Source: Candidatus Woesearchaeota archaeon (lineage in GTDB: Archaea > Nanobdellota > Nanobdellia > Pacearchaeales > GW2011-AR1). From it: DNA of 56,592 bases. This document shows positions 29,085-49,400 of the stretch, in pieces; the first letter of the stretch is position 1; each line of letters starts with the position of its first letter. The position numbers were made by a program, and so were the translations under genes. The notes under the pieces are model-generated. The model worked only from the letters and a program-made list of their open reading frames with translations, did not search any database and was not told where the DNA came from. The stretch spans positions 1 to 56,592 of the forward strand of contig CAYIOA010000001.1 of assembly GCA_964364885.1 (NCBI GenBank). Direction: 5' to 3'.

Positions 29085-29093
29085 CTTATATAA

Positions 29094-29576
29094 CTATTCC
29101 CACAAATATATAGTTAATGTTATTGGAACATCTTTATATATGCTAACTCTCGTAATCCTTACTAAATTATCCGAATTTGGGTCCAGCAGTCCAATCCCTT
29201 CTATTCTAGACCCGCCAATAACAACCGATTCAGAAAGATTAACATAATAATTATGCCTGATGCCGAATAATGTTTTTGTTTTCCCATAATCAATTTGCGC
29301 AAGATTATAAAAACTCTCCAGTTTTGTTTCATTTATCTTCTTGTCAGTTAACAGTCCAATTTTGACAACACTGCTTTCATCCCAATTGCTAGGATATCCC
29401 TCCGAAAGCAGAGTATTTGAAACAATTTCTCCTTCATGGCTCAAAATACTAAGTTTCTCATCTGTCCCTGAAGAAGAATTCAAAGTGTAAATATAAAGCA
29501 AGAATGCAGCAGCTAAAAAAATAATAGCGGAAACAGCCAAATCAAATCCCCATGCCTGGGCTTTGCTCACTTTCAT
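29094..29576 (-). CDS. Pilin-like protein, 160 aa
   Basis: MKVSKA|QAWGFDLAVSAIIFLAAAFLLYIY N-terminus. 4-nt overlap with the KaiC-like gene. Confidence 0.55.
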   Translation of the reverse strand: MKVSKAQAWGFDLAVSAIIFLAAAFLLYIYTLNSSSGTDEKLSILSHEGEIVSNTLLSEGYPSNWDESSVVKIGLLTDKKINETKLESFYNLAQIDYGKTKTLFGIRHNYYVNLSESVVIGGSRIEGIGLLDPNSDNLVRITRVSIYKDVPITLTIYLWE

Positions 29577-30430
29577 TCTCGGTTGTTTTCCAGAAAATTA
29601 GAGGCTGGATTTTTGCTGACGACAATGCCTTTGCCGGAAATATCAAATGGATAGACTTTCTTTGAATGTTTAGTCCCTCTCATCTTCAAAACTTCTAGAA
29701 ACCTCCTCCTCTCTCCTCCGTTTCTCACAAAATACAAAACAACAATAGCATCTGCTTCAAATTCCAATGTCCTGGAGGAAATCTTGCTCTGGTCAGAAGA
29801 CTCAACCTCAAGTGTCAATAGCGAAGTGCAGTCCCAATCTCGAATCATGCCGAACAAAAACAAAGCGGCTTCTCTCTTAGAAAGTTCATCCTCAAACAGC
29901 AGCTCAAAAGAAGTGATGCTGTCAATAACCATTCTGCTTATCTTTTTTCCAACTACAATAGTCTCGATAAATCCCCCTCCTTCTTCAAGCATTGTTTTAA
30001 CCTTGCTGGGGGTGTATTCCAAAAAAGTAAATAGCCCTTTTTTTTCGTAACTCTCCAAGTCCCATCCAAAATCTTTCATATTTGCATAAAACTGCTCTTT
30101 CTTTTCTTCAAATGTAACAAATAAACATTTCTCTCCTTTCTCCATGCCTCGAAGCAGAAACTGCACAGCGAAAATAGTTTTCCCGCTTCCAGAACCTCCG
30201 ACTATTAAGCTGGTAGACTTTCTTTCAAAGCCTCCGCCAATAAGAGAGTCAAAATTAGGGATATACGTCGGAACTCTTGCCGTATTATTCTTCAGAGATT
30301 TCCTTTTCTCCTTTTTCTCCTCTTTAACTTTGGCTGAATCGCGCTTATCACTCTTTTCCGGCCTTTTCCCACTGTCTTTATTATTCAGTTTTAATCCCCT
30401 TTCCTCAACACTTCTTTTTAATTTCTTCAT
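29573..30430 (-). CDS. KaiC/RecA-superfamily ATPase (FlaH-like) with a Lys/Ser-rich N-terminal extension
   Basis: FDSLIGGGFERKSTSLIVGGSGSGKTIFAVQFL (Walker A) and VTFEE. About 55-aa basic N-terminal tail. Confidence 0.85.
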   Translation of the reverse strand: MKKLKRSVEERGLKLNNKDSGKRPEKSDKRDSAKVKEEKKEKRKSLKNNTARVPTYIPNFDSLIGGGFERKSTSLIVGGSGSGKTIFAVQFLLRGMEKGEKCLFVTFEEKKEQFYANMKDFGWDLESYEKKGLFTFLEYTPSKVKTMLEEGGGFIETIVVGKKISRMVIDSITSFELLFEDELSKREAALFLFGMIRDWDCTSLLTLEVESSDQSKISSRTLEFEADAIVVLYFVRNGGERRRFLEVLKMRGTKHSKKVYPFDISGKGIVVSKNPASNFLENNRE

Positions 30431-30823: not shown

Positions 30824-31207
30824 ATGAATCAAGATAAGATATTAAACAACAAGCTCATCAATGAACTAAAGAAAGATAAAAGAATCATAGCTGTGCTTTT
30901 ATTCGGCTCGCGTGCAAGAAACGAACAATATAGAGACACTGATATCTGCCTCGTTCTCGACAAAAAATACTCAAATTTAGAAATGTCAAAGATAGTATTA
31001 AAATATTCATCCGAATTGACAGCTAAGCACGATATCCAGGTATTCCAGCAGCTTCCTCTCTACATAAGGCAGAGAATTCTTAAAGAGGGAAAAATACTTT
31101 TATGTATTAACGAACCTGCTCTCTATGACATAGCCTTTGCAACAATAAAAGAATTTGAATATTATAAAAAAATATATTATACATATCTTGAGGCAATGCA
31201 AAAATGA
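30824..31207 (+). CDS. mntA: MNT-type nucleotidyltransferase antitoxin
   Basis: LFGSRARNEQYRDTDICLVLD (GS...DxD polymerase-beta-type NT motif). 4-nt overlap with the HepT gene. Confidence 0.8.
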   Translation: MNQDKILNNKLINELKKDKRIIAVLLFGSRARNEQYRDTDICLVLDKKYSNLEMSKIVLKYSSELTAKHDIQVFQQLPLYIRQRILKEGKILLCINEPALYDIAFATIKEFEYYKKIYYTYLEAMQK

Positions 31208-31638
31208 GAAAAAGCTCAATAGATAAGGAAAAAATTCTTTCTAAGATAGATGAATTAGATGGTTACTTGGAAGAGTTGGAGCAAATTAAGCCCGCTGACT
31301 TTGATGAATACAAAAATTCAATAGAAAAGAAAAGAGCTGTTGAAAGATTGCTACAAATAGCGATAGAAACCGTTATAGATATTTCTAACATCATAGTCTC
31401 TGGTCTTAAACTCGGAATACCATACGATGAAGATTCTCTTTTAGACAAACTGGAAGAAAAAAATGTCATTTCAAAAGAAATAAAAAATATTATGAAGGAA
31501 ATGAAGGGCTTTCGCAATGTTCTAGTCCACAAATACGCAGAAGTCAAAGATGAAATTGTATTCGAAAATCTCAATAAACTTGACGATTTTGATAAATTCA
31601 AGGAAGAAATTCTTTCATTTCTTAAGAAACATTCGTAA
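31204..31638 (+). CDS. hepT: HepT (DUF86/HEPN) toxin
   Basis: Rx4HxY motif in FRNVLVHKYAEV near the C-terminus. 144 aa. Confidence 0.85.
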   Translation: MRKSSIDKEKILSKIDELDGYLEELEQIKPADFDEYKNSIEKKRAVERLLQIAIETVIDISNIIVSGLKLGIPYDEDSLLDKLEEKNVISKEIKNIMKEMKGFRNVLVHKYAEVKDEIVFENLNKLDDFDKFKEEILSFLKKHS

Positions 31639-31642
31639 AAGC

Positions 31643-34600
31643 CTAAACCTTCTCTTCATTTCTCCGTCGCGCAAGAATCCAACTAGCAACAATAATTAAA
31701 ACAACACCAATAGAAATAAATATCACAGTCAGTATTATAGTTACTAATTTATTTTGCTCTTCATCTTGCACAGAAGCAGAAACCCTGCCTCTATTTCCCT
31801 TAGACGTGCTTTTAAAAACCTCTGAGCCAGGACCACTTGCCAAACTCTCTGAACTGCCCACTAAACCTTCTGAACTACTCCCTGAACCTAAATTGCTATT
31901 TGAAGAGTCACCGCTATTCAAAGAACTAATACCACCTAAACTAAGAATGCCTGCCGAACATAGCTCCATAACATGAAGGTTGCCAGAAAATTCGGCATCC
32001 CACGAGTTCCATACAATACGGCTGCCTTGCACGCCGATATTAGAATTAAAATTAGGATATCCTTTGTCTACTTCTAATACTCTGCTGTCATCACTCGTGC
32101 CAGCTATGCCGTCAGCACCCAAGTAATAAAGAAGAATACGTCCATATTCCTGCCAGACAATATATGTTCCGGATATTTCAGGCTCAACGCCAAAAGACAA
32201 ACCACCATACATTCCAGAATCATCTCCTCCGTTATTCTCAAACAATCCATTTGCTCCAAGTCCATATAAAAATATCTCTGGGAGGTATTTCAAATTTCGC
32301 CAGTCTTCCCATACAATCACATTTCCGTCAATAGAAGGATTCTCCTGTCCCTGCGGATTATTCGTTATTCTATCTTCCTGTCCACTAACTATATCCCTCA
32401 TGTATATCTCCCAATTGCCATCTCTCCCATCCTGCCAAACAACTTTAGTATCATAAATATCAGGATTCCATTGGCTTTGCTGATTAATCACAAATGGAAC
32501 TTCTGTATTGGTAGAAAAATCATAAAGATAAATATCCCAATTGCCGTTTCTTTTATCTGCCCAAACAATACTATCGTCATAAATAGACAAATGATTCTTA
32601 TCACTGCCAGTATTAGTTAATTGTGTTGGACCTAAGTCGTCATTTCCATTCTCAAATAATCCATTTACTCCATTATCATAATAAAACACTTCGTAACTCG
32701 GTCCTACAGGACCAAGCCAGACAATTAAATCATCATAAAAGACAAGCTCCCCAACATCAACATATCCGCTAACATCAAACTCATAATGAATATCATCAAA
32801 AGACTTATACAATCCATCAAGTCCTAATTCATGTAAAACTATTTTCTCCTGATTGCTCAAATGATTGTATTCTTTCCATAGAATCTTCGTGTCATACACA
32901 TCACCAAGAGTTCTACTACGCTCAATCCATATAACTGCTTTCTTACTTCCATCATTTGTGTTATGATAAGACCTATCAAGGAACACATCAATCCCGTGCA
33001 CATTCTGCCAAACACCTTGCTGAAGAAGAACAATATCAACAATTGCTGGGCTTGTTACAGAAACACTTGTTACTTTTACACTAGCACTGCTTCCTGTTAT
33101 AACGTCTAAGAGTTCAAAAGTATGCTCCTCTCCGTTATACAAAAACTTATGCGAGGACTTTGGAGAGCTTCCTCCGACTATCAAATCAAATGTCTTCGCG
33201 CCTGATAACTTAATCTCACTCCCGATTTGTCCAAACTGGCAAGCCTGTGAATTCGGCCCCCCGTAGCAATAATTTGAATAACTCTCTCCTCTGTCAATCA
33301 CAGCTACACCAGCATTGGCACAATTCCACCAAGGTAAATACGGTCCGGTATCACCTGATTCATGCACATAAACGCTCCCAGGATAAATACCCTTGCACGC
33401 ATCAAGCGCAGTTTGATAGCACATAAAAATAGGAAACTCGTTGCCGTCACTTTTAATATCAACTTCTTTATACACGTTCATAGAATTGTCAAACTGATTT
33501 CCAGGAAGATTATCATATATCACGCCTAATAAACTGCCCGTGCATGCATTCCCTGTGCATCCATAAGGACATTGATATAATGTTGCGCCAGGAGCCACAC
33601 CAAAGCACGACTTCTCATTAAGCAAAGTATTATCAGCAACCCACTGGCTATTAGTGTCATAACTGCAAATATCACTTGCCCATCCCTCCCTAATCAATAT
33701 AACCTCATTTCCAGAATTACCTGCTCCAATAAACTTAATACCCGAAACATAAACATTGTAATTCCAATCAATAGGATCAAATAATGTAAAAGAGCCAAGC
33801 CAAACTGTTTGAGTAACGCCGTTCATAGTCAAGATTGCCTCATCATCTGAGATAACTTGTAAGCTATATCCTTGATAAACTCCCTCCTGCAAAACCTCCC
33901 CTCTTCCTCCTTTAAAAGAAACAGAGAAAGCCACATAATTATTTCCTCCGTCATAATCCCGGCATATCTGCGCTTCAATAGAAACACATGAATGCAGCAA
34001 AAGCACTGCACTTAACGATGTTGCTGTTTCATCAGCTTCAAGCAAATAAACTTCAATACCGCCTGAAAACACTTTCGCACCATTTTCCGGAATATCACGC
34101 ACTTCCGACCGACCAATATTATCAGTCATTTTTATCGTCGCTGATGTATCAGACGCAGAAACCAGCTCAATCTCGTACAAATCAACACTATCAACTAAAA
34201 TCTGTCTGACAAAATCCTTGTTTGTATCCAAACTAATTTTCACCGCCCCATTAAGAACAAGTATATCATCATCTGAATCTGCTCCGATACTATAATCACT
34301 ATCTAAAAGAGTAAGAAGCGTGCCATAATCAAAAGCAGAAGTGGAAAGCGGCAGTGCTGGAGTAAAAGCAGTCTTATAAGTATAAAACGGTTCTCCAACA
34401 GGGTCTGTAGAAATTTCCAAAATAGTTTCTGGCTCCATGCCAAAAACTGGAGATTTATAAGTCATATCATAACTCCCATAACTCTTAAATGTTATTGACT
34501 GTCCGTAATTATATGAATTATTGCCAGAAGAATCTCTTACAACACCCGAAGCAAGTAAATAAGGTAATTCGCGCTCTCCTATAATAATAGAACCAGAAAC

Positions 34601-37600
34601 ACCAACATTCAGCACAGCGCGGATAATTCCCCCAGTCGTATCTTCATCAGCATCTTCAACTTGAACAATCAACCCAGAAATAATATCGCTCTGTCCTTCA
34701 TGAACAATTCTTGTATCGATCAATCCAGTTTGACTACGCACTTCAATCGTTGCAGTTGTATCACTAGCAGAAACAAGAGTTAAAGTATATTCCACTCCGC
34801 TAATAAAAACTTTTCTCACTGAATTGCCAAAAGTATTATCAAGATAAACAGTTTCAAGTGGAGATTTCTCTCTATGAAAAGGAACTAAAAATGAAAAGAA
34901 TTCGGACTGCTCTCCTCCCTCAACTGTCAAGCGACCATATTGCTGTTTTAATGGAACATTTATGTTTACATTCGATGCCCAAGAATAATTCGTTAGTGTT
35001 ACCGAGCTTCCAAACGAAGTTATTTGTTTATAATAATATCTGTTACTTGATGAAGATGCAAGAGCTTCCCCGCCAGAAGAAAATACAGGCGTTGGAGTTA
35101 AACCTGATAATGTATAAACAGAAGGAACACAAATTGCATTTCCCTCCTCTTCACCAAACACAGGAGGCTCAAGAATAAGAACAGCAGGACCGTGCGCGCT
35201 GTCAAATATACACGGCTGTCCATAAACATAAACACGGTCAAGCAATCCTACGTTTCCAGAACTCCAGCGCACTCCATAATCAATCTTCCCTACAAAAGTG
35301 CTCGTTGAAGCTCCGGCATTATATATAAAAGATGTTCCTTGTAAATAATCATCCACAACAAATCTCCCAGGCACTTGATAAATAATATTTTTATCTACGC
35401 GAGTCTCACTAAGAAACGCGACCTTGGCTCCGCGTTCTGAAGTAAGTATTGGAAATAATCTCATTTCTGGTTGTGCATCGTGAGCTTCAACCCACCCAGA
35501 CTGTGCAAATCCTAAATTGCCCAGATTAATTAAAACACTGCCCTCAACTAACAGCTGTGCGCTAAAGCTCTGTGTCAAGCTATCAAATGATGATTGTATA
35601 ACTCTTATTCTCAAACCATTTACAGCTTCTGTTGTTCCTAAAGCAATGTTGCGCGCCATCGTCGTGGTTGAATCACTTACTCGAACAATAGCACTCGTAG
35701 AACTCGCGCTTTCAATCTTAATAGTATAAATCTGCCCGTCTAAAGTTACATCCCAAGATAGAGAGCCATCTCCGACACCTGCATCCTTTCCATAAGCTAA
35801 TGAATATGTCTCTGCCCCAATAACCAAACTCCCAACTCCCTGTGAGCTTATCGTTGCAGAATAAACATTTCCAGTCAATACATCTCTGAACTCAACAATA
35901 TCACTATTAAATCCAGAATCTATATCCGCCACTCTTTCAACCTCAAACAACCATCCCTGCTCATTCTTTAAACTTGATAGCAAAATTAATTCCTCCTCCC
36001 ACGCACGCTCTCCTTCATACACATGAATAGGGTCATAATTTCTTGCTAAATCAGCCCCGATAATCTTCTGATTCTCATCCTTGCGTGGAGAAGCATATAA
36101 AATCGCCTGATATGGTGTATCAAACACAATACTATCAAAAGACATTTCGCTTGATTGCCCGTCGCCGTATACCTGAATACTATCACTGCCAAAATACCAC
36201 GGAGGAGAAAATGTAAAGTGCAGCGACGCACTGCCTTTTTCAAATACTCTGTCAGTATATGTTTGAGACTTAGTTAAATAAGATGAGGTGTTATCTGCCG
36301 CAGCGTACGAAACACTCATTGAATCCATGCCTGCTCCAGGTATTCCCTGGTTGTCAACAGAAGTTCCGCGCACAAGATTACCCTGAATACCTTTTTGCAC
36401 AACAGAATCATCGTCAAATTTCAGCATAGAACGCACAGAAGAAACACATAACGATTGCTCTACAAAACACTGAGACGAACACCCGTCTCCGCCCCGCGCC
36501 CCGCATTGTGAGCCATCAGTGCAAACTCCATTTAAAGTGCAGTCACTTCCATCCCCACACTGTCGTCCATCATCACAATCTTCTATGCCCTCAATAAGAC
36601 TATCTCCACATAAACTACAAGAGCGTATATCAACAGAATCCTGCGTAACACCAACAATCTCCATATCCTTCCCTAAATAATGAATCTTCAGAGGATTTTG
36701 CGCACTTGTCTGTCTCAAATCAAACGCTCCATTAAAAGCATAATATAAATCTGTAGAAATAGGCTGAACATCAACTATAGCTCCGACAATCGCCAAGGGC
36801 AAAGTTACTCCTGTTCCAACTTCAGGCGAAATTTTTCCAAAAATTAGCTCCTCTGAAGCAGAGTCACTTATACCATTAAAGCTTAAAAATTCTGAAAATC
36901 CTGCAATAGACAAACCAAATCCAAACAAATTATCAGATAACGGCTTTCCAACTGGCAATTGGTGTTGAGTTTGCGCGCCATTCAAAGTCAAAAGAACATT
37001 CGCCAAAACCTGGTCTCCAGGAATATCTATCAAAACTCTATCCTGAAAACTATTAGTCGCCTGATTCCCGATTTTAATTCCGTATGTTGTCATAACGCCA
37101 GAAGTCGTCCCTTTCTGAACCCTTCCCTGATTAGCAACCTCTGCTCCGCTGATCTCTATTTCCGCAGCCTCTGGAATTTGCGGCTGATTGCCAAGTCCTG
37201 CAATCTTTCCGTTTAAACTATCAAATAAAAATTTCATACTGATAATCTCTTGCGTTAACAACTCCGGAGTATCTCCTTTCGTTTCAATAAGCAAATCAAT
37301 AATATTATTGCTCCCTGAATCTCTCACCAGCTTTATGACTGCATTATTTCCAGTTGTTTGTAAATGCTCAACATGGAAAATAGAAACTGGCTGTTGTGTG
37401 CTATCAGGAACAGAAACTTCACCCAAGTATTGAAGAACTCCTAAAATTTCTCCGTAAATATCTGCTTTTAAGATACTCCCGACAATTTTTGTCTCAAGTA
37501 AAATCGCGCTTGTTCTTTGTCCGTTATAGCCTTGATTAATATCCCATCCCGCGTCATCAATAACAAATATCTCTCCATTGGATTTATCTTTAATCTCAAT

Positions 37601-39544
37601 TAATTCGCGCTCCTCAGGAAGCACCAACAAATTGCCGGAGCCGACTGTCTGGCCATTACAAGAACTATCAACTGTAAAATGATATAAGTTTGAATACTGG
37701 GAAAGAATTCCGCTCGGAATAGTCCACCTGATTAACTCTTCCTTCGGCCCAACTTTCATCTGAACCCTTCCGTTTGTGCCGAATGGTGTGACTATCTGTC
37801 CGAAATTATCAAACATTCTTACATTTAAATCAACCCCCGTACATGAGCCATACTTAGTCATGCTCAATATTACTGACTTCCCTTCAGATGAAACAATTAA
37901 AGGATTAACATCACTAGAATCAATGCCGTTGCTCCAATAAGCAGTTTGAAACCCGCAAATACCGCCCCTATCAAAAATCTCATTCTCACAAAAAGTTGGA
38001 GATAGCTCATCAACCCTCTCACAATTTGACTCAATGCTAAAGCAGTCGCACAACAAGCCAATTCCGCCAGCTGGCTCGCGCAGTTTCGGATTCGCATCAG
38101 AGCATTCATCAAGTCTTTGTATAAAAACATCATCCGCACTTTGTCTTCTATCCAAGTTCAAATCACACAACTCTCCCCTGCCAATGGTAGAATCATAACA
38201 ACCAGGATTAATAGAAGCATCTACCGGTCCATTTTTATTATAATTGCAATATGAATAAATATAATCACAATTCATACCGCACCCCAATGCGCTGTTAAGT
38301 CCGAATGTAGACTCGGCAGGTCCTGCGTTCGGAAAATCAGAGCATGTTAATCCTTGGGAGAATACATCATCATTAGGATTCTCGCTGGGCTCATATAAAC
38401 CAGTTGCAAAATTTTTATTTATAGAAAATCCATTTCCATTTAAACCCTTGTCGCAAATTTCCATGCCGTCTATAATTCCATTCCCGCACTGGCTTGTTCC
38501 TCCATTATCCTGGCACTGGCACTGCACACATTCCCAGCCCTGTCCCATCAAAGAACACTGTGTTGCATCATTCAAGCATCCATCAAAACAAATTCCCCGC
38601 GAACACACCTGATTAAAGGCACAGTCATTATGCCAATAGCACTCCCCGCAATACCCGTCATAACTGCATACTTCATTAAAATTACACTGAGAATCAGAAG
38701 TGCATCTGTCAGGAATATCACAAACTCCCCCTGCGCCAGCTATATCTGAAGAGGAGACAAGAATAGTTGTTCTGCTCTGAATATTTCCCGGTCTAAGATT
38801 ACCCTGAACCAAAGACTTGCCAATACTAACCGGCGCGTAATCGCTAGAAGGAACACTCAATCCATGCAAACACGCAGACGCATAATCATCAGGAAAATCA
38901 AGACACTCCCCTATCTGCAAACTATTACTAATAACATTGGATATTCCGATAAACGGTCCTTGAGGATCAGCATCAGAATCAACAATTTGCGTCGGCCCAA
39001 CTTGGTCTAAATTTCCAAGCTCCCATATCCATTCTGGGTTATTAGGGTCCTGCCCTATGAAAGGATCTCTATCCCTATAAGTTCTTATCGTGCACTGAGC
39101 ACCGCCAGATGAAGCAACACACGCCCCGTCCACACATCCATTATCGCACTTAATCCGCGTCTCCATAATTACCCCTTGATCACACCACTGCTCATGAACA
39201 TAATCAATATAACTTCCGTCTCTATTTCTTACCTGAGAGCAATAATCTTCATCGCTCTCCCCATACTTCACATACGTAGTAGACTTCGTATAAATTCCAT
39301 TATTTCCATCAGGATCAACACATCCGTAACCATCATCAATCACTCCAGAGCCAACACACTGAGCAAAATTCAGATAATCATTATAATCAATATCTCCGTC
39401 GTTATCAAAATCAGATGAAGTTCCAGTCTGTCCAAGAGCGCTATTAATAATAAATATCCCTGCCAGCAAGACAAAAATTCCAAATAAAAGTCCAACTCTC
39501 CAAATTTTTCTCTTCTCTATTTTTATCTCCTTTTTTCTCTTCAT
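31643..39544 (-). CDS. Giant (~2,633 aa) multidomain cell-surface protein
   Basis: Uninterrupted 7.9-kb ORF with a Sec-type signal or anchor (WRVGLLFGIFVLLAGIFIINSALG). Dockerin-like DFDNDGDIDYNDY. Cys-rich repeats CGNGIIDGMEICD and CGDSLIEGIEDCDDG. Four SASDT-type modules (e.g. YTLTLVSASDTTATIEV). C-terminal PD40-like repeats (NGNWDIYLYD, DGNWEIYMRD). Ser/Gly linker and C-terminal TM anchor followed by RRRNEEKV. I prefer the ATG at 39544; the ORF-track start at 39565 is a TTG. Confidence 0.9.
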   Translation of the reverse strand: MKRKKEIKIEKRKIWRVGLLFGIFVLLAGIFIINSALGQTGTSSDFDNDGDIDYNDYLNFAQCVGSGVIDDGYGCVDPDGNNGIYTKSTTYVKYGESDEDYCSQVRNRDGSYIDYVHEQWCDQGVIMETRIKCDNGCVDGACVASSGGAQCTIRTYRDRDPFIGQDPNNPEWIWELGNLDQVGPTQIVDSDADPQGPFIGISNVISNSLQIGECLDFPDDYASACLHGLSVPSSDYAPVSIGKSLVQGNLRPGNIQSRTTILVSSSDIAGAGGVCDIPDRCTSDSQCNFNEVCSYDGYCGECYWHNDCAFNQVCSRGICFDGCLNDATQCSLMGQGWECVQCQCQDNGGTSQCGNGIIDGMEICDKGLNGNGFSINKNFATGLYEPSENPNDDVFSQGLTCSDFPNAGPAESTFGLNSALGCGMNCDYIYSYCNYNKNGPVDASINPGCYDSTIGRGELCDLNLDRRQSADDVFIQRLDECSDANPKLREPAGGIGLLCDCFSIESNCERVDELSPTFCENEIFDRGGICGFQTAYWSNGIDSSDVNPLIVSSEGKSVILSMTKYGSCTGVDLNVRMFDNFGQIVTPFGTNGRVQMKVGPKEELIRWTIPSGILSQYSNLYHFTVDSSCNGQTVGSGNLLVLPEERELIEIKDKSNGEIFVIDDAGWDINQGYNGQRTSAILLETKIVGSILKADIYGEILGVLQYLGEVSVPDSTQQPVSIFHVEHLQTTGNNAVIKLVRDSGSNNIIDLLIETKGDTPELLTQEIISMKFLFDSLNGKIAGLGNQPQIPEAAEIEISGAEVANQGRVQKGTTSGVMTTYGIKIGNQATNSFQDRVLIDIPGDQVLANVLLTLNGAQTQHQLPVGKPLSDNLFGFGLSIAGFSEFLSFNGISDSASEELIFGKISPEVGTGVTLPLAIVGAIVDVQPISTDLYYAFNGAFDLRQTSAQNPLKIHYLGKDMEIVGVTQDSVDIRSCSLCGDSLIEGIEDCDDGRQCGDGSDCTLNGVCTDGSQCGARGGDGCSSQCFVEQSLCVSSVRSMLKFDDDSVVQKGIQGNLVRGTSVDNQGIPGAGMDSMSVSYAAADNTSSYLTKSQTYTDRVFEKGSASLHFTFSPPWYFGSDSIQVYGDGQSSEMSFDSIVFDTPYQAILYASPRKDENQKIIGADLARNYDPIHVYEGERAWEEELILLSSLKNEQGWLFEVERVADIDSGFNSDIVEFRDVLTGNVYSATISSQGVGSLVIGAETYSLAYGKDAGVGDGSLSWDVTLDGQIYTIKIESASSTSAIVRVSDSTTTMARNIALGTTEAVNGLRIRVIQSSFDSLTQSFSAQLLVEGSVLINLGNLGFAQSGWVEAHDAQPEMRLFPILTSERGAKVAFLSETRVDKNIIYQVPGRFVVDDYLQGTSFIYNAGASTSTFVGKIDYGVRWSSGNVGLLDRVYVYGQPCIFDSAHGPAVLILEPPVFGEEEGNAICVPSVYTLSGLTPTPVFSSGGEALASSSSNRYYYKQITSFGSSVTLTNYSWASNVNINVPLKQQYGRLTVEGGEQSEFFSFLVPFHREKSPLETVYLDNTFGNSVRKVFISGVEYTLTLVSASDTTATIEVRSQTGLIDTRIVHEGQSDIISGLIVQVEDADEDTTGGIIRAVLNVGVSGSIIIGERELPYLLASGVVRDSSGNNSYNYGQSITFKSYGSYDMTYKSPVFGMEPETILEISTDPVGEPFYTYKTAFTPALPLSTSAFDYGTLLTLLDSDYSIGADSDDDILVLNGAVKISLDTNKDFVRQILVDSVDLYEIELVSASDTSATIKMTDNIGRSEVRDIPENGAKVFSGGIEVYLLEADETATSLSAVLLLHSCVSIEAQICRDYDGGNNYVAFSVSFKGGRGEVLQEGVYQGYSLQVISDDEAILTMNGVTQTVWLGSFTLFDPIDWNYNVYVSGIKFIGAGNSGNEVILIREGWASDICSYDTNSQWVADNTLLNEKSCFGVAPGATLYQCPYGCTGNACTGSLLGVIYDNLPGNQFDNSMNVYKEVDIKSDGNEFPIFMCYQTALDACKGIYPGSVYVHESGDTGPYLPWWNCANAGVAVIDRGESYSNYCYGGPNSQACQFGQIGSEIKLSGAKTFDLIVGGSSPKSSHKFLYNGEEHTFELLDVITGSSASVKVTSVSVTSPAIVDIVLLQQGVWQNVHGIDVFLDRSYHNTNDGSKKAVIWIERSRTLGDVYDTKILWKEYNHLSNQEKIVLHELGLDGLYKSFDDIHYEFDVSGYVDVGELVFYDDLIVWLGPVGPSYEVFYYDNGVNGLFENGNDDLGPTQLTNTGSDKNHLSIYDDSIVWADKRNGNWDIYLYDFSTNTEVPFVINQQSQWNPDIYDTKVVWQDGRDGNWEIYMRDIVSGQEDRITNNPQGQENPSIDGNVIVWEDWRNLKYLPEIFLYGLGANGLFENNGGDDSGMYGGLSFGVEPEISGTYIVWQEYGRILLYYLGADGIAGTSDDSRVLEVDKGYPNFNSNIGVQGSRIVWNSWDAEFSGNLHVMELCSAGILSLGGISSLNSGDSSNSNLGSGSSSEGLVGSSESLASGPGSEVFKSTSKGNRGRVSASVQDEEQNKLVTIILTVIFISIGVVLIIVASWILARRRNEEKV

Positions 39545-39548
39545 TTTT

Positions 39549-40451
39549 TCATATCTCAATATCAAACTTTGGATAGCTCTTTCTCACTCCAGCGCCATTA
39601 ATCGCAGTAATAGTGACATGTGCCAGCCCATCATCATTCAAATTTCCTAAGTTATACTCCCACTTTCCGCTTCCAGAATTATAAACTGCATTAGCAATCT
39701 TATCAGCAATCTTCGGCTTCCCAAATCCCACAAAAGCGAGCTCAACGCCTGAAATGCCCCTCGCATCACTAACGCTGGTTTCAATAAGAGAATTTGTCGT
39801 AGCTGGAATATAATCGCTGAAAGTTGAAACATCTTTCCCATCAATTAAAATATTTGTAAACACTGGTTCTGACGCCGGCTCAACTCTCACTGATAAACTC
39901 TTTCTCACAACTTTTTCAGCTACATTCAATCCAGGCACATTCACTAATCCAGAAAGATCTTCCTTAGCTTCAATTGTAAATGTATAACTTCCAACGCTTC
40001 CAGCAGGAGAAGCCCAGGTTAACATTCCCTGATTATCTATTTGAACATTATACGGATTAGGATTATTAACATCACAATCAACAGTGATAACTCCTCCAAT
40101 AACGGCTCTCGTGCAATAAATCTTATAGTTCAACGGAAAACCCTCTGGATCACTAACTCCAAGAGGGAAATTCAGGCTTCCGCCGTCAGAAATAATCTGT
40201 CCTGTCCATCGCGGAACCAAAGGATCCTGATTCTTCAGCGCATACTCCTGCCAGAATATTGTTTCATCACTGCTCCCGACAATTCCGTTTGAATCTAAAT
40301 CAGCATTAACGCTGCATTGTCCTGCCGGAGAGAAAGAAATAATTTCAAGAAGTTCAGGTTTCAGAGAAAAAAAAGCAAGTAAAACAATAATAGCAATCAC
40401 AACACCAAAACGTAAAGAATCATTCAATACAATAACCCTCTTCTTCCTCAT
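39549..40451 (-). CDS. Secreted or anchored Ig-like-domain protein (300 aa) sharing its C-terminal module with the 1,226-aa protein
   Basis: N-terminal anchor FGVVIAIIVLLAFF and dockerin-like DLDSNGIVGSSDE. The C-terminal ~100 aa align with residues near the C-terminus of ORF 46457-50137. Confidence 0.7.
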   Translation of the reverse strand: MRKKRVIVLNDSLRFGVVIAIIVLLAFFSLKPELLEIISFSPAGQCSVNADLDSNGIVGSSDETIFWQEYALKNQDPLVPRWTGQIISDGGSLNFPLGVSDPEGFPLNYKIYCTRAVIGGVITVDCDVNNPNPYNVQIDNQGMLTWASPAGSVGSYTFTIEAKEDLSGLVNVPGLNVAEKVVRKSLSVRVEPASEPVFTNILIDGKDVSTFSDYIPATTNSLIETSVSDARGISGVELAFVGFGKPKIADKIANAVYNSGSGKWEYNLGNLNDDGLAHVTITAINGAGVRKSYPKFDIEI

Positions 40452-40481
40452 AAATTAATGAAATAACTCCAATATATAAAA

Positions 40482-41393
40482 TTAACCAAAAAATTGTGAG
40501 AAATATTTCAAGAGAAATATCCTTGAAAAAAAGAAGACAGCCAAGCTGACTAAAATTAAAGGAACCATATATACAAATCCATCTCTCTCTTTTCCTCTGC
40601 TTACCACTCCTAAAACTAAAGAAGCAAGAACATCAGTCATAACAATAAAAAAAGCTGAGAAATAAAATATAAAATCAACAGAAACATTTACTTTTGTCAG
40701 GGAAAATGGAAGATTTATATTCGCCTGCTCAACAGGAATATCAGACAGCAAATTAGTCATAACCTCAACAAGAACTGAAGAAAGCCCGAAAAGAACAGGA
40801 GCCCCGATGGCAACAGCAAAAAAAATGAAAATAACATACATCAAAACATTTGAAGCAGCTCTTTTTCTCACATAAATTCTCTCTCTCATATTATAGGAAG
40901 TCTCTTCCAGCAGAACTGACAGATTCCCCCCGGAAACTATTCCAGAAGTTATCAGCTTCATAATCCTGCTGATTTCATCAGATTTTATTCTGGCAGCCAT
41001 ATCATTTAACGCCCGCCCTATCTCTTTCCCGGTCGCAATATCCTTTCCCAATCCAAGTATCTCCTTGTCAAGCGGAGCAAACTCTTTCCTTGAGCTGTAC
41101 AAAAGCGCCTTGTCAATAGTCATGCCGGCACGGAGATTAGAAGCCATCAAAGAAATAAAATCAGGAAAAGCATCCTCCATCTTTTTAATATCAGAGTACT
41201 TCTTAAGGCGCCCCTTGACAAAAAAATAACCCAAAAGCAGAACAAACAAGAAAACAAATGAAATTGTTGCTCCATTAGCATTTTTAGTAAGTGCATAAAT
41301 AATTCCTCCCAATAAAACAGCAATTATCAAGCTAATAAAAAATTGGACAGCGTAGTTTTTATCTTCATGAGCTTCATTATTATTTCCGTTCAT
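40482..41393 (-). CDS. Type IV pilus platform protein, T2SS-F family (TadC/EpdK-like half)
   Basis: FPDFISLMASNLRAGMTIDKAL and multiple TM helices. Start is ambiguous between the ATG at 41393 (MNGNNNE) and the ATG at 41534. The 41534 start would translate repeat copy C as a 47-aa extension. Confidence 0.72.
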   Translation of the reverse strand: MNGNNNEAHEDKNYAVQFFISLIIAVLLGGIIYALTKNANGATISFVFLFVLLLGYFFVKGRLKKYSDIKKMEDAFPDFISLMASNLRAGMTIDKALLYSSRKEFAPLDKEILGLGKDIATGKEIGRALNDMAARIKSDEISRIMKLITSGIVSGGNLSVLLEETSYNMRERIYVRKRAASNVLMYVIFIFFAVAIGAPVLFGLSSVLVEVMTNLLSDIPVEQANINLPFSLTKVNVSVDFIFYFSAFFIVMTDVLASLVLGVVSRGKERDGFVYMVPLILVSLAVFFFSRIFLLKYFSQFFG

Positions 41394-41408
41394 TTTATTC
41401 TTCTTAAA

Positions 41409-41515
41409 ATCAAAAAGTCCTTGTATTTTGCCGAAGACTGAAGTCCGCAGTTTGTTTGGATTCATCAAAGATTCTCCTCGCACTTCAGTGCGTGTTTTGT
41501 CAGGAGTCTTGGCAT
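41409..41515 (+). repeat. Modular nested-hairpin repeat, copy C (partly degenerate), between or within the platform genes
   Basis: AATCAAAAAGTCCTTGTATTTTGCCGAAGACTGAAGTCCGCAGTTTGTTTGGATTCATCAAAG...CGCAC-TTCA-GTGCG...CTTGGCATTAAA. Both termini match copies A and D. Confidence 0.7.
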
Positions 41516-41535
41516 TAAATTTTTTCAGCATCATT

Positions 41536-42417
41536 TTAAATAAGACTTGGTCTGATAGACCTCATTACCCCCAAAAACATGACTTGCACAAGCATGACAA
41601 AGAAAAACAATCCAAGGAACATACCAGTTGTAATAGCTTCAGGAAGATTAACAAGAGAAGAGATTATAGTTAAGAAAGTAATTGACAAAGCAGGAACTAT
41701 AACAGAGATAAGCATATAAAAAACAATAGTCGGATTTAACTTGTTTCCATAATTTTGTATCTGTATAAATTGCTCTTCGTTCAAGGACTTTATGCTGTCC
41801 GCAAGAACTATAGAAATGTCGCTTCCAGCTCTCATCCCATTGCTGATTTGCCACAAAGTTCTCCTAAAAAATAAGGAAGAATTTATTTCTCCAGTCTCTT
41901 CAAGAACATCTACCTGCGGCCTCCCGGAGTTTATTTTTCTTACAATCTTCTTAAACTCTTCGCTAAGCTCCCCATATCCTGAAGAGGAAATATTTACAAG
42001 AATGCTAAAAAGAAGTATGCCGGAGTTCAATTGCACAAGCATATCCTGCAAAGCAGGAATAAGATTGCTTTCTATATCTTTTTGCTTTCTAGAATCGTAA
42101 ACCTTGGGATAAATTCTTCTGATAAGAAAAATAAAGATTGAAAAGGCAAGCGAGACTGCCAAAGACAAAAGAAAAGCGCTGGAGATTTTTAATAAGACAA
42201 GAACAGTTGAAGATAAAATAAGACTAATAGCAAAAGCCATAACAGAGCCCTGAAGGCAGATAGAGAGATACTCCTCCCTTGTAAGCTCAACATCAATATT
42301 ATTCAAGATACTCTGTAGTTTAGAGCTTTTTTTAGGTTTTATATACTTCTTAAAAAAAGCAGATCTCTGCTTTAGTTTGTCAACTGAAGAGAAAGTTAAA
42401 GGAATGCGAAATTTCAT
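41536..42417 (-). CDS. Type IV pilus platform protein, T2SS-F family (TadB/EpdJ-like half)
   Basis: LIPALQDMLVQLNSGILLFSIL and TM helices at both ends. 293 aa. Confidence 0.72.
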   Translation of the reverse strand: MKFRIPLTFSSVDKLKQRSAFFKKYIKPKKSSKLQSILNNIDVELTREEYLSICLQGSVMAFAISLILSSTVLVLLKISSAFLLSLAVSLAFSIFIFLIRRIYPKVYDSRKQKDIESNLIPALQDMLVQLNSGILLFSILVNISSSGYGELSEEFKKIVRKINSGRPQVDVLEETGEINSSLFFRRTLWQISNGMRAGSDISIVLADSIKSLNEEQFIQIQNYGNKLNPTIVFYMLISVIVPALSITFLTIISSLVNLPEAITTGMFLGLFFFVMLVQVMFLGVMRSIRPSLI

Positions 42418-42422
42418 CTCAG

Positions 42423-44051
42423 CTAAGTCCTCTTTTCATTTTTATTCCCGAAAATAATTTCTTTGTTGTTCGATTTAATAGCCTTGAATAAAAGCTCCTT
42501 GTTCTTGTAATACAAATTAATAACTCTTCCCGCTTCATTCAGGCTTCTTAAGTTATTTTTAATAAGCCATAGAAAAATTTCTTTTTTCTCATTAAGGTCT
42601 TCGCTTATCTCTTCATCCGACATACCGGTATTTCTGCCTATATCCTCAAAAAATCTGGAGCTCTCGCTGTGTTTTATCATTTTATCTCCTTCAGGGCTCC
42701 ATCTATACAAGATATTTGGTCTTGCAGCATCTTTTTCAGTTTCAAATTCAGCAATTTGCATTACCCTTCTTATTCCCTTTTTTCTATCCCTGAACATAAC
42801 AACATTAAGATTGACAGCCCTCAGTAAGTTAGGAGGAACGCTCAAGGGAGGATTAATTAATCTTGAGATTGTTTCAGAAGCTGAATCAGCATGGACAGTT
42901 GCATAGACAGAATGCCCTGTGTGCATCGCCTCAAACAAAACCATTGCTTCCTGCTGTCTTCTCATCTCACCAAGAATAATTCTGTCTGGTCTCATTCTTA
43001 AGCTGTTTATAAGCAAGTCAAGCATATTGACCTCTCCCTTGCCTTCAGGATTTGGAGTCCTCGTAACCAATGGAGTCCAATACAAAAATTCAGGTAAATT
43101 CAGTTCACGTGTATCTTCAATACTGACAATTCTCTGGTTAGGCGGAACAAAAGGCATGCATGCGTTCAAAAAAGAAGTCTTCCCTGAACCAGTGCCTCCA
43201 GAAATAAGAATATTCATCTCATATTCAATAGCAAGCCAAAGCAGGGCGGCAGTATCGCTGTCGCAAGTTTTATTATTGATAAAGTCCACAATAGTAAACG
43301 GATCTCTCGCAAATTTTCTGATTGTGATTGTATTCCCCTTCGTGTTTATAGGATATAAAACAGCATTAATTCTATCTCCGCTTATCAAGTGCGCATCAAG
43401 CAAAGGATTAAGAAGAGTAATCTGCCTTCCAACTCTTCTGGCAATAATATTTGAATAATTAACAATCTCCTCTTCTTTAGTTATTGTAATATTTGTCGTC
43501 AGCCAGCCGTACTTCTTGCTAAAAACTCTTATTGGCTCTTTAGAAGAGGGTATAACAATCTCCTCAAGGTTCGGGTCTCCAACCAGAAATTCTATTTTTC
43601 CCAGTCCAAGCATTTCCTGCATCAGAACACCAACTAAAAAATCTTCAACATTCTTCTCTATCTTAGGAAGCCTTTCTTTCAGCAGCTTTCTAGCATCTCC
43701 CATAAACCTCTTCTTCACTGAAAAGAAAAATGCCGGATCAACAAGTTCGCTCATACTTATTGTTGTAACAGAAACAAGTTCATTTCTTATTCCTTCCAAA
43801 AGAGTCATTGTAACAGGGCTTATTTCAGGAATATGCAGAAGATAATTAATCCCTATAGAGTCTTTTATTATTTCTACATTTACTCTGGCTCCATCAAGCT
43901 CTATCTCATATTTTTCAAGCACTCCTTCCTTGCTCCCAACTCTGCCGGAAAATTTCTCATTTCCCCTATTTTCTTTTTGTTCCTTATCTTCAGGAGGAGC
44001 TATAGCTCTCTCATGAAATTTCTTCAAATGCTCGTCTCTCTTTTTTTTCAT
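42423..44051 (-). CDS. FlaI/TadA/VirB11-family type IV filament assembly ATPase
   Basis: Walker A ISGGTGSGKTS, Asp box VSIEDTRELN, Walker B DRIILGEMR, His box TGHSVYATVHA. Confidence 0.9.
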   Translation of the reverse strand: MKKKRDEHLKKFHERAIAPPEDKEQKENRGNEKFSGRVGSKEGVLEKYEIELDGARVNVEIIKDSIGINYLLHIPEISPVTMTLLEGIRNELVSVTTISMSELVDPAFFFSVKKRFMGDARKLLKERLPKIEKNVEDFLVGVLMQEMLGLGKIEFLVGDPNLEEIVIPSSKEPIRVFSKKYGWLTTNITITKEEEIVNYSNIIARRVGRQITLLNPLLDAHLISGDRINAVLYPINTKGNTITIRKFARDPFTIVDFINNKTCDSDTAALLWLAIEYEMNILISGGTGSGKTSFLNACMPFVPPNQRIVSIEDTRELNLPEFLYWTPLVTRTPNPEGKGEVNMLDLLINSLRMRPDRIILGEMRRQQEAMVLFEAMHTGHSVYATVHADSASETISRLINPPLSVPPNLLRAVNLNVVMFRDRKKGIRRVMQIAEFETEKDAARPNILYRWSPEGDKMIKHSESSRFFEDIGRNTGMSDEEISEDLNEKKEIFLWLIKNNLRSLNEAGRVINLYYKNKELLFKAIKSNNKEIIFGNKNEKRT

Positions 44052-44053
44052 AT

Positions 44054-44599: not shown

Positions 44600-44649
44600 A
44601 TTTAATTATATGTAAGAACCTTTAAAATCTTAACTATATTTAGAGATGT

Positions 44650-45060: not shown

Positions 45061-45062
45061 AA

Positions 45063-46456: not shown

Positions 46457-49400
46457 CTAAATTCCAAACACCCTCTTCATCCATCTCACAATAATACTTT
46501 CTTTAGGAGGCGAAAGATAGGCATCATCAATTTCAATATCAAACTCCGTAAAAGAAGCAGAAACTCCTGCAGTATTATAAGCTCTAACACTAACATGAGC
46601 CAATCCATCATCATTTAATCCTGTTAAGTTATACTCCCACTTCCCGCTTCCAGAGTTATAGACTGCATTAACAATCTTATCGCCAATCTTCGGATGTCCA
46701 AATCCTTTCAATTCCAGTTCAACTTTATCAATCCCTCGTGCATCACTAACATTCACTTCAATAACTGAATCAGAACCAATAATATTTTCCACATTAGAAA
46801 CATCCCTGCCATCAATCTGAACACTGTTAATTATTCCAGCAATATTGTTCTGAGCTCCTAAATCTAAAGAAGTAGTATTGCCTCCGCCCCCTCCACCGCC
46901 TCCAGAGCTTCCGCCTCCGCAAGACAGTCTTGCATTGTCCGCCCAGACACATTCATTTCTTGTAGCAAAAGTATTCTTAAAGCCTGTATTAGATTCCGAG
47001 TTATCACACGAAAAGTCCATACTCAGACTACCACAAACCAAGTTGCTATCAAAATTGTTATTAGAACTAGAGAAAAGTACAACTCCCTCCTCGTTATTTA
47101 CAATATTATTATTCCTAATGCTATTTTGAGAGCTCTGAACAATATTAAGCCCTCTTTTATTTGAATCCAATATGTTGTTCTCAACTAAATTATTGTCACT
47201 ATAAATTCCCAAAGCTATACCATTTAGTCCGCTATTATCTACCCTGTTATTAGAAATTATATTTCCAACACCGCGATTAATATAAATCCCATATTCCACA
47301 CTCTTATCTACAAGATTATCGGAAATTATTGAATCAGAAACAACAGTTAAACTAATTCCTGTACCAAAGTTAAAAATCTTTAAATTCTCTATTTTAAGCT
47401 CCTTCATTCCGAGAGAGTTAACGCCTATATCTCCAGCACTGTCATCACCGATAATTGAAAAGCCATTTCCATCTAAAGTAATATTGTTTGCTGTTATAAC
47501 AAAGCAATCCGAGGTTGTTGTTATGTCCTTAGCAAGAATATACTTCGTGTTTGGTTTGTCAAGAGTCTGACAGCCATTCAATAAAACACCCTCAAGGCAT
47601 GCTCCATCCACACAACCATTATCACATTTGATTACATTTTCCATTATTACTCCATTATCACAATATTGCTCGTGTATATAATCAACATAAACCCCACCTC
47701 TTCCTCCAGTCCTCTGACAATAGTCCTCGTCGCTCTCTCCATAAGGCACATACGTAGTAGACTTCGTATAAATTCCGTCAGGTCCGTCAGGATCAATACA
47801 GCCATACCCGTCATCTACAATCTTTGGAACAGTATAATTAACAATTAAAGTCGGCTTAAGGGAAGGGTCTTTAGACCCCATAAAGAATAGCTGAAGTTCT
47901 GTATATTCTCCATTATTAGGAGTAGTATAGAGGTCATACCCCCCACGTAATCCAAATACAGTATAGCCATTATTATTAATAGTAGCCAGCCCATCAGAAT
48001 TCAATGGAAAAACTATATTTACATTAGATGCAAGTTGCCCACTTATATCAAATCTATCACTCAATTCCATAGGATTATCTACTGAACTAAACTGATCAAA
48101 ATCTTCAGTAGTTAAAAATGGGGGATTTTTTAAAGTTGTAGGCACAATAGTAATAAAATCATCTGAATTTGGATGTGTGTTAATATAAAAATCAGAAGAT
48201 TTTGAAAGACTCAATTCTGCAGAATCAATTATGGCAGAATCTGGCAATGAACTTGTATAAAATGGAATTGAGATTCTATAAAGAAGAGAAAAAGAGGTTG
48301 ATGGGTCTGATTTTAGCAATAATAAATAGTCAGAAATTGGGGGTTGGGGGCTTATTCCATCTCCATTTGGACTTTTTCTCAGATCATCCCATGACCCTAC
48401 CGAGATCATGGATGATCTATATACTCCTGTTCCTTCATTATCTGCTGTGAATATAGCAGTACAAGAATTATTTCCATTATAAACATCTCCAGGAGCACAT
48501 ATAGGACCCGTACATTGTGATACATCAAAATCACAATGTAACATACATCCTAAATTGCCATATCTAAAGCCCAGAGTCTCACAAGTATGACCATTTAGAT
48601 TCTGACCATCACAATCTTCTCCAAGATCAATGATGCCATCCCCACAATCTATAGACCCCACATACAATTCAATACTCGTATCATTTAGATTTAACGTAGT
48701 CACCATAATATCATTATTTGAGTCATAAAAAGTTTCGCCTTGTCTAAGAACAACATCAAGGCTATTAGCAGTATTACGAGAGCTATCTAATAACTGTGTA
48801 TCCCCACTCCCAATAAAAGAATCAATATGTAACATTGCTCCATCATAAACATTTCCTCCATAATTAAAATTATATATATCAAAACCAATAGGTCTGCGAT
48901 ATTCAAAATAATAATTATAATTCGAAGTAGGAATTTTTAATCCTTTAACCCCTCCTGTATTAGTTTCAAGAGGTTCAATAAAATAACTTCCACGACTATT
49001 TACTTCTAAAATTTGTTGAGGATCTAACCAACCAATAGTTTCCTTATGGATTATATTAAAATAACCTTTATTATTGGACAAACCCATAATATCAAATGGA
49101 TCTCCGTAATAAACTGTAAAACATTTGTTAATTAGATCAATAGTTGAAGCTCCACAATTAAGAAAATTGGCATGCTCGATACCAAAATTATGACCTAATT
49201 CATGAGCAGTAACCCCGAAATTCCAACCCGAACTATAAACCCCATTTAACCATGATACAGCTAAAGAAGCAGGACCATCAGATGTTTGATGGGTATATTC
49301 GCCAACACTTCCCGCTCCACCAAAACTACATAAATTAGCGCCCCACACGATTACTAATTTATCAACAGTCAACCAATTAATGTCCCTGCTTATAAGAGGA

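Follow-up and report, generated by a model that had tools for sequence, protein, structure and literature searches.

Pacearchaeota and Woesearchaeota are abundant, uncultivated archaea, and their envelopes and host-contact structures are essentially uncharacterized. One gene on contig CAYIOA010000001.1 of a Candidatus Woesearchaeota archaeon (GenBank assembly GCA_964364885.1) encodes a protein of 2,633 amino acids, hereafter the giant protein; the whole stretch of DNA that was analyzed, 56,592 nucleotides long, is referred to as the window. What kind of protein is this, and what could it be for? An initial annotation made from the DNA letters had described a giant adhesin-like surface protein with repeats of an unrecognized module that has a SASDT-type core. 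The answers weighed here are a lattice-forming surface-layer (S-layer) protein, an anchor of the S-layer, an adhesin-like accessory protein, a secreted enzyme, and an artifact of assembly or annotation. We assign the SASDT repeat to a family of S-layer-like proteins of about 900 amino acids that carry it in a single copy. Our results point to an accessory protein with a transmembrane anchor in which domains of this family were reused, permuted and multiplied, and whose gene closes an operon for pilus assembly.

An S-layer-derived core

The central part of the giant protein was mapped by pairwise comparison and with a profile of 29 S-layer-like proteins; the scores of the SASDT modules come from a 62-module profile built on modules of other organisms. 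The gene and the domains of this part are as follows, in the order of the protein.

31643..39544, minus strand: whole gene, 2,633 codons plus stop
35780..36427, minus strand: domain B, residues 1040-1255, S-layer positions 303-513 (E 9e-27)
35534..35767, minus strand: SASDT module 1, residues 1260-1337 (E 2e-19); as S1, residues 1262-1336 match S-layer profile positions 228-301 (E 1e-12)
34922..35473, minus strand: domain C, residues 1358-1541, S-layer positions ~545-745 (E 1e-18 in pairwise comparison to the S-layer-like protein P0003)
34595..34834, minus strand: SASDT module 2, residues 1571-1650 (E 7e-25); as S2, residues 1565-1649 match S-layer profile positions 219-301 (E 4e-16)
34241..34582, minus strand: domain A, residues 1655-1768, S-layer positions ~110-225, matched by the profile together with S3
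33989..34240, minus strand: SASDT module 3, residues 1769-1852 (E 6e-24)
32921..33169, minus strand: possible degenerate fourth SASDT module, residues 2126-2208 (weak alignment)

Judged by these comparisons, residues 1040-1860 (about 820 amino acids) are homologous to the central part of an S-layer-like protein of about 860-930 amino acids found in Pacearchaeota and Woesearchaeota. All of the central domains of that protein (A, SASDT, B and C) have homologs in the giant protein. With the S-layer profile, A and S3 were matched together (positions 110-297 versus residues 1655-1848, E 1e-29), and domain C was matched over positions 609-745 versus residues 1409-1541 (E 4e-7). The domain order is B-S-C-S-A-S in the giant protein, whereas it is A-S-B-C in the S-layer protein. 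As aligned, the core is a circular-permutation-like rearrangement with two extra SASDT modules.

The S-layer nature of the family is indicated by several of its members. PF05124 (S_layer_C, cut-off 23.9) was passed by the 860-920-aa proteins P0003, P0007, P0009 and P0016 with 33-56 bits, and P0009 (MBS3091233.1, Candidatus Pacearchaeota) passed TIGR01564 (S_layer_MJ) at its N-terminus. Proteins of this type have a signal peptide and conserved termini (...AAAANYPAPFV and ...LVAGYEAADT..A..YL) and no transmembrane anchor. Their genes (loci L001-L072) are nearly constant in size, at 857-932 amino acids with one SASDT module, and the named records among them are annotated only as hypothetical protein. 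A search of PDB sequences with P0009 as representative found no solved homolog of the family.

The giant protein shares only the central part. Profile positions 1-110 and 750-881, which bear the S-layer signatures, have no counterpart in it, in agreement with the lack of any match to PF05124 and, at E<=0.1, to the N-terminal signature TIGR01564/PF05123. It is not an ordinary S-layer protein: it did not pass the S-layer signature tests, and a propeller, a stalk, a transmembrane segment and Cys-rich regions have been added. The initial annotation had allowed that its modules might prove to be well-described S-layer domains. They do belong to S-layer proteins, but the family is not a well-described one.

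Domain B was modeled with AlphaFold2 at a mean predicted local distance difference test (pLDDT) score of 67.8, with confidence only at residues 1169-1254 (pLDDT 80-95). Foldseek with this model gave weak hints of a Tudor/SH3-like barrel at E~0.5, from which no functional conclusion is drawn. The same residues, ~1169-1254 (35783-36040), which make up the C-terminal half of domain B, form a second small repeatable module, five tandem copies of which were matched in the protein P0008.

The SASDT module

An exhaustive phmmer search with residues 1040-2239 against 1.84 billion representative proteins matched 151 proteins at E<=1e-3, 52 of them at E<=1e-10. A three-sequence module profile found the SASDT module in 116 of the 151. 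A large group of 860-920-aa proteins carries a single copy at residues ~225-300, and proteins of 300-600 amino acids carry two to five copies in tandem. We also scanned one genome per GTDB species with the pattern Y[TNF][IVL][ET]L[VI][SA]ASD. This yielded 74 confirmed loci, all in metagenome-assembled genomes (MAGs) named Pacearchaeota, Woesearchaeota, Nanoarchaeota/Nanoarchaeia or unclassified archaeon. Since the module is single and lies at residues ~206-350 of a complete 857-932-aa open reading frame (ORF) in 60 of these loci, SASDT is the signature module of the S-layer-like protein of this clade. It is not peculiar to the giant protein, a point that the initial annotation missed.

The SASDT cores of the giant protein lie at residues 1273, 1586, 1790 and 2143. 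Three copies match the module profile (consensus YTxELVSASDTxATIKVTD...KEIxEGxSKxIxGLxVxVxxADE) over its full length; they are about 28% identical to each other, and BLAST of fragments detects them too. The fourth gives a weak alignment over the full model, with a conditional E of 0.002 and 4 bits; the S-layer profile places it at 0.0012. At least four modules of about 65 residues had been proposed; three are solid and the fourth is weak, and the true length is about 85 residues rather than 65. With the 62-module profile, no other ORF of the window contains the module.

The module had not been recognized as a named domain, and it is indeed unnamed. No consistent Pfam family was found among 65 diverse modules, tandem-SASDT proteins gave no NCBIfam match, and the module profile gave no match to PDB sequences. 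Module 2 was modeled with AlphaFold2 from a 65-sequence alignment (pLDDT 92.7) as a domain of eight beta strands. Foldseek with this model found nothing at E<=1e-3 in PDB and BFVD, and the best TM-scores were about 0.5. Since small beta domains are hard for Foldseek, we do not claim a new fold on this result alone. Neither the module nor the neighboring S-layer domains thus have a curated profile, a solved structure or one that Foldseek detects.

In about 25 of 87 S-layer-like proteins, a hairpin resembling part of the module was weakly matched past domain B (positions ~495-535). Hidden SASDT-like modules after B and C of the canonical protein were considered on such weak partial matches and are not regarded as established.

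A membrane-tethered surface protein

The minus-strand reading frame 31643..39565 is without interruption. It opens with TTG at 39565, and its first ATG, at 39544, lies 4 nt past the stop codon of the upstream gene and gives the product of 2,633 amino acids, as initially annotated. The ORF and its protein are real; nearly all features of the initial annotation were confirmed, and each motif quoted in it was located at a definite position. The sequence matches, with 100% identity, a hypothetical protein (AABX73_01595) of a Nanoarchaeota archaeon, from a single MAG contig. Since archaeal MCM, eRF1, a TrmB-family regulator, FtsZ and several aminoacyl-tRNA synthetases are also encoded in the window, it is chromosomal DNA of a small archaeon of the DPANN type (Diapherotrites, Parvarchaeota, Aenigmarchaeota, Nanoarchaeota, Nanohaloarchaeota).

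Hydropathy gave exactly two hydrophobic segments, residues ~14-39 and 2597-2627, where membrane segments and the basic tail RRRNEEKV had been predicted.

39428..39544, minus strand: basic N-region and 22-residue hydrophobic stretch ending SALG|Q, residues 1-39 (hydropathy)
31757..31954, minus strand: Ser/Gly-rich low-complexity stalk, residues 2531-2596, about 65 residues (read from the translation)
31646..31756, minus strand: C-terminal transmembrane helix and basic tail RRRNEEKV, residues 2597-2633 (hydropathy up to 3.17)

Residues 1-39 are probably a Sec signal peptide. The operon described below raised the possibility of a class III (pilin) signal peptide, which was rejected by inspection. 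The N-terminus reads ...KRKIWRVGLLFG... and has no [KR]-[GA] cleavage motif, unlike five neighboring ORFs in which KGQ/KAQ/KRG/KKG motifs are canonical. The giant protein is therefore probably Sec-exported and probably not an archaeal type IV pilin-like protein.

These features show a type I, membrane-tethered cell-surface protein of a DPANN archaeon of the Pacearchaeal/Woesearchaeal type. Together with the identity to AABX73_01595 and the archaeal MCM, eRF1 and TrmB genes, this topology agrees with the initial view of a giant protein on the surface of an archaeon that has a small genome and is probably episymbiotic. Outward from the membrane, the order is the basic cytoplasmic tail and transmembrane helix, the stalk, the propeller, a Cys-containing region with the possible degenerate module, the core, and the N-terminal ~1,000 residues. 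The latter are mostly Cys-rich, while the core of ~820 residues is nearly Cys-free. Among the 65 Cys of the protein, clusters are located at residues 63-151, 275-344, 353-530, 976-1033 and 1960-2102, and only two Cys fall within residues 1040-1852.

Propeller and architectural relatives

31955..32902, minus strand: seven-bladed beta-propeller of the TIGR04275 type, TolB/PD40-like, residues 2215-2530 (NCBIfam)

A C-terminal propeller with PD40-like repeats had been read by eye. A propeller is supported by TIGR04275 (beta_prop_Msarc), with 143.2 bits versus a cut-off of 85 in four scored stretches, and by weak TolB similarity, but the PD40 model itself reached only E 0.2. The motifs quoted for the propeller lie at residues 2333-2417, and seven [ILV][ILV]W blade motifs across residues 2221-2510 indicate seven blades. 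Searching PDB by sequence gave no useful match to the whole giant protein.

The combination of these parts recurs elsewhere. In the protein P0080 (1,620 amino acids), domain A is followed by four S-like modules, domains B and C, a stretch with Cys, a propeller of PD40/Tricorn type and a C-terminal transmembrane segment. P0078 and P0141 are shorter transmembrane-anchored relatives, and P0019 and P0072 combine A and S with LamG and dockerin domains. The clade thus seems to reuse S-layer domains habitually in its accessory surface proteins. The occurrence of such reuse in independent proteins also speaks against a chimeric assembly.

The type IV pilus locus

Six minus-strand genes follow one another here, with gaps of 1-30 nt along the ATPase and platform genes, and the giant gene comes last. 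It ends a tightly packed, operon-like unit for type IV pilus assembly, whose other members are listed first, followed by the ORFs with class III signal-like N-termini.

44054-44599, minus strand: 181-aa protein
42423-44051, minus strand: T2SSE-type ATPase
41536-42417 and 40482-41534, minus strand: T2SSF platform proteins
39549-40451, minus strand: 300-aa membrane protein with an N-terminal transmembrane segment and a DLDSNGIVGSSDE loop resembling the DFDNDGDIDYNDY loop of the giant protein
44650-45060, 45063-45455, 29094-29576, 26661-29084 (VWA) and 25747-26670: ORFs with class III signal-like N-termini

The pilus genes form a split locus of the Tad/Epd-like type IV kind (25747-30430 and 39549-45455) with a T2SSE ATPase, two single-domain T2SSF proteins and a KaiC-like ATPase. 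Its halves are separated by a nucleotidyltransferase (MNT)/HepT toxin-antitoxin pair on the plus strand (30824-31638), in convergent orientation to the giant gene. Beyond this pair are the KaiC-like ATPase and three proteins whose N-termini are of the class III (pilin) type, including the VWA protein of 807 amino acids, and two further pilin-like genes are located at 44650-45455. The loop of the 300-aa protein, which is similar to that of the giant protein, is of the form DLDSNG; the protein has no Pfam or NCBIfam match. No intrinsic terminator was found past the giant gene by a scan that is ill-suited to archaea.

Depletion of N-glycosylation sequons

The giant protein has 3 N-X-S/T sequons versus 23.0 +/- 4.3 expected (z = -4.7), and none in residues 40-1040 and 1860-2633. 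The expectation is from composition-preserving shuffles, a null that keeps composition only. By the same measure, the VWA pilin-like protein (26661-29084) is enriched, with 22 sequons versus 12.3 expected (z = +3.3), while the clade S-layer-like proteins are at expectation (mean of 29: 11.6 versus 11.2, z about 0). P0019, an accessory protein bearing the SASDT module, has 0 versus 13 expected (z = -4.2). This pattern suggests selection against N-glycosylation of the accessory proteins. Strong depletion of sequons is a simple sequence signature and could help to find such proteins.

Proposed role and alternatives

We regard it as moderately probable that the giant protein is an S-layer-associated, membrane-tethered, adhesin-like accessory protein that is co-expressed with the pilus genes and does not itself form the lattice, a reading built from domain homology, topology and gene order. 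We infer that the S-layer-derived core could seat the protein in the S-layer lattice, or dock it onto the lattice, via domain contacts of the same type. The disulfide-rich N-terminal part, almost free of sequons, would then project past the lattice and serve as an adhesin-like head for binding. Expression together with the immediately preceding genes for type IV pilus assembly would make the protein part of an attachment apparatus.

Several observations weigh against this role. A word-index search with the full-length query found no full-length relative in 5.8 billion protein clusters, returning only the giant protein itself and one propeller-only match. A metagenome scan with six peptide patterns along the protein gave only propeller matches, the best of them (L076) in an unrelated 1,698-aa protein, and revealed no independent assembly and no orthologs. 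The giant protein is a singleton, so orthologs offer no argument for a conserved role. Pilus genes are absent at the locus of P0080 (L075), the closest architectural relative, and the linkage of the giant gene to pilus genes may be accidental. No domain of the giant protein was recognized as one that mediates adhesion to a known ligand, and the canonical S-layer gene is not in the window. Residues 1-39 could also be an uncleaved anchor, tethering the protein at both ends.

A more specific version of the proposal, which we consider rather unlikely, is that the giant protein is a site-specific insert of the S-layer, its permuted core with three modules assembling into the lattice by SASDT-mediated contacts. 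SASDT would then be an undescribed beta fold serving as lattice-contact element in the S-layers of Pacearchaeota and Woesearchaeota, and the protein would anchor the lattice, which otherwise has no anchor, to the membrane and project a deliberately unglycosylated, disulfide-locked host-recognition head next to the type IV pilus. If true, this would offer a first molecular handle on S-layer anchoring and host attachment in uncultivated DPANN archaea. If the broader functional reading is true, the giant protein and relatives such as P0080 become candidate proteins for anchoring the S-layer or attaching to hosts in the clade.

The main rival is a role as an S-layer anchor or stalk protein, in which the homologous domains tether the lattice and adhesion is secondary. 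In Sulfolobales such a role is filled by SlaB, a conserved, membrane-anchored stalk protein encoded next to slaA, the main subunit being without a transmembrane anchor. The giant protein resembles SlaB in its C-terminal transmembrane anchor and extended region; the two have no sequence relationship, and the giant protein is a singleton in a pilus operon. It does join a transmembrane segment, a stalk and S-layer-homologous domains, the canonical S-layer-like proteins of the clade lack a C-terminal transmembrane segment, and smaller transmembrane-anchored relatives exist (P0078, P0141, P0080). The anchoring of DPANN S-layers of the MJ0822 type is acknowledged to be an unsettled question (bioRxiv 10.1101/2021.04.28.441871). 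However, a structural anchor should be conserved in the clade, and the lack of orthologs counts against this role. The protein is also far larger and more Cys-rich than an anchor requires, and its ~1,000 N-terminal residues are unrelated to the S-layer. We consider an anchor role unlikely.

Instead of a structural or adhesive role, the protein could deliver a toxin or work as an enzyme, secreted or on the cell surface, such as a protease or glycosidase directed at host envelopes. No fold could be assigned to two large regions, 540-975 and 1853-2102, which would leave room for such an activity, and one module is common to a neighboring reprolysin-like metalloprotease. Yet no catalytic family was matched in Pfam or NCBIfam by the whole protein or its sub-regions, and no PDB sequence was matched, which makes an enzymatic role improbable, more so than an anchor.

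It could also be proposed that this is the lattice-forming S-layer protein of the organism itself, ordinary though oversized, as its ~820 amino acids of homologous domains and the absence of a canonical gene from the window might indicate. We find this very unlikely. Besides lacking PF05123, PF05124, TIGR01564 and the matching profile ends, the protein is about three times the very constant length of the clade protein and has 65 Cys, a transmembrane anchor and a permuted domain order, and a separate canonical ORF of ~900 amino acids is present in 60 related genomes. An artifact (a chimeric contig or genes fused by error) could be suggested by the presence of the gene on one contig only, no independent assembly having been found, and by its GC content slightly above most of the window (0.39-0.41), but 7.9 kb without a stop codon in a window of 32-41% GC, the coherent topology with signal and transmembrane anchor at the extreme ends, the recurrence of the domain combinations in independent proteins such as P0080, and a Gly/Ser/Asp-rich composition that fits the higher GC leave it, too, with very little probability.

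Relation to known surface proteins

The S-layer-like proteins of ~860-930 amino acids, distant members of the MJ0822/PF05123-PF05124 group, come from the same clade and share the homologous A, B, C and SASDT domains with the giant protein. The giant protein differs from them in having no ANYPAPF... and LVAGYEAADT... parts, a permuted order, three or four SASDT modules versus one, and ~1,800 extra residues including the propeller and transmembrane anchor. Proteins of the P0080 type (also P0078 and P0141) are closer in build, with signal, A/B/C domains, tandem SASDT-like modules, a Cys-rich stretch, a propeller and a transmembrane segment. Identity in the common domains is 25-31%, order and copy number differ, and these proteins lack the 1,000-residue Cys-rich head at the N-terminus of the giant protein.

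Giant proteins of episymbiotic DPANN archaea and the Candidate Phyla Radiation (CPR), such as the SPEARE proteins of Nanohaloarchaeum antarcticus, are very large, mosaic, lineage-specific surface proteins of small-genome symbionts, for which a role in host contact has been proposed. The giant protein is similar in size and mosaic build; Pfam and NCBIfam revealed no serine protease, restriction-endonuclease or other SPEARE-type domain in it. To our knowledge, an S-layer-derived core is not a described feature of such giant proteins.

A precedent for an S-layer-derived surface structure that is not a lattice is the hamus subunit of Candidatus Altiarchaeum hamiconexum (Perras et al. 2015, PMC4460559). 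Like the giant protein, it is without the S_layer_C signature and beta-rich, with a suggested propeller-like region (PMC4460559), a likeness taken from the description of that protein. What remains of the S-layer protein is the N-terminal region (PF05123/TIGR01564) in the hamus subunit but only the central domains in the giant protein, and hami are filaments of a subunit of ~120 kDa. In Nanoarchaeota, fast-evolving candidate host-interaction genes include cell-surface proteins and type IV pilus components, among them a FlaJ/TadC homologue (PMC6142677). By itself, the present finding is an example of mosaic DPANN surface proteins and S-layer-derived accessory proteins, not a new type of system.

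Cys-rich regions, unassigned stretches and minor observations

The regions outside the core and propeller are listed from the N-terminus, together with a paralogous module in another gene. Pfam gave nothing significant in the whole giant protein or in seven sub-regions.

39374..39412, minus strand: single EF-hand/dockerin-type Asp-rich loop DFDNDGDIDYNDY, residues 45-57 (motif)
39116..39343, minus strand: 8-Cys module shared with ORF 46457-50137, residues 68-143 (amino acid and nucleotide identity)
47594..47821, minus strand: paralogous 8-Cys module, residues 773-848 of ORF 46457-50137 (amino acid and nucleotide identity)
38513..38722, minus strand: cluster of 14 closely spaced Cys, resembling EGF in spacing alone, residues 275-344 (Cys positions)
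37955..38488, minus strand: Cys-rich region starting with the repeat CGNGIIDGMEICD (353-365), residues 353-530 (TIGR02232, sub-threshold)
36620..37927, minus strand: region with only 2 Cys (568, 629), residues 540-975 (no detectable relatives)
36446..36619, minus strand: second Cys-rich acidic repeat block, CGDSLIEGIEDCDDG at 979-993, residues 976-1033 (TIGR02232, sub-threshold)
33239..33988, minus strand: second Cys-containing region (13 Cys), residues 1853-2102 (no family match)

Some labels given to these regions by eye stand as motif resemblance only. The proposed dockerin-like Ca-binding loop is present as a single DxDxDGxID motif, but dockerin type I (PF00404) was not matched in residues 41-160 by Pfam at E<=1, and the protein is not a member of that family. 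The Cys spacing described as EGF-like is likewise present, but residues 275-344 gave no significant Pfam match and no EGF model. We therefore reject both domain assignments, as neither has profile backing in Pfam. Myxococcus-type repeats had been placed where TIGR02232 (myxo_disulf_rpt) does align, at residues 978-999 (17.6 bits, E 0.0024) and 351-367 (12.4 bits, E 0.1), but both scores are below the cut-off of 20.8.

For residues 540-975, nothing was found in Pfam, NCBIfam, the protein-cluster search or the metagenome scan, and for residues 1853-2102 there was no Pfam or NCBIfam family. Elsewhere in the window, an Rfam match to IRE_II at 24791-24821 (plus strand; 30.3 bits versus a gathering threshold of 30, E 0.083) is almost certainly due to chance in an archaeon.

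ORF 46457-50137 (minus strand) encodes a secreted-type protein of 1,226 amino acids with a reprolysin-like metalloprotease domain, the 8-Cys module, a NosD/right-handed beta-helix and Ig-like C-terminal repeats. The Cys-rich module that the initial annotation saw in common between this ORF and the giant protein is well supported: residues 68-143 and 773-848 are 73.7% identical over 76 amino acids, and the DNA of the two modules is 74.7% identical over 221 nt. An identity of 74% suggests a recent intragenomic exchange of this module.

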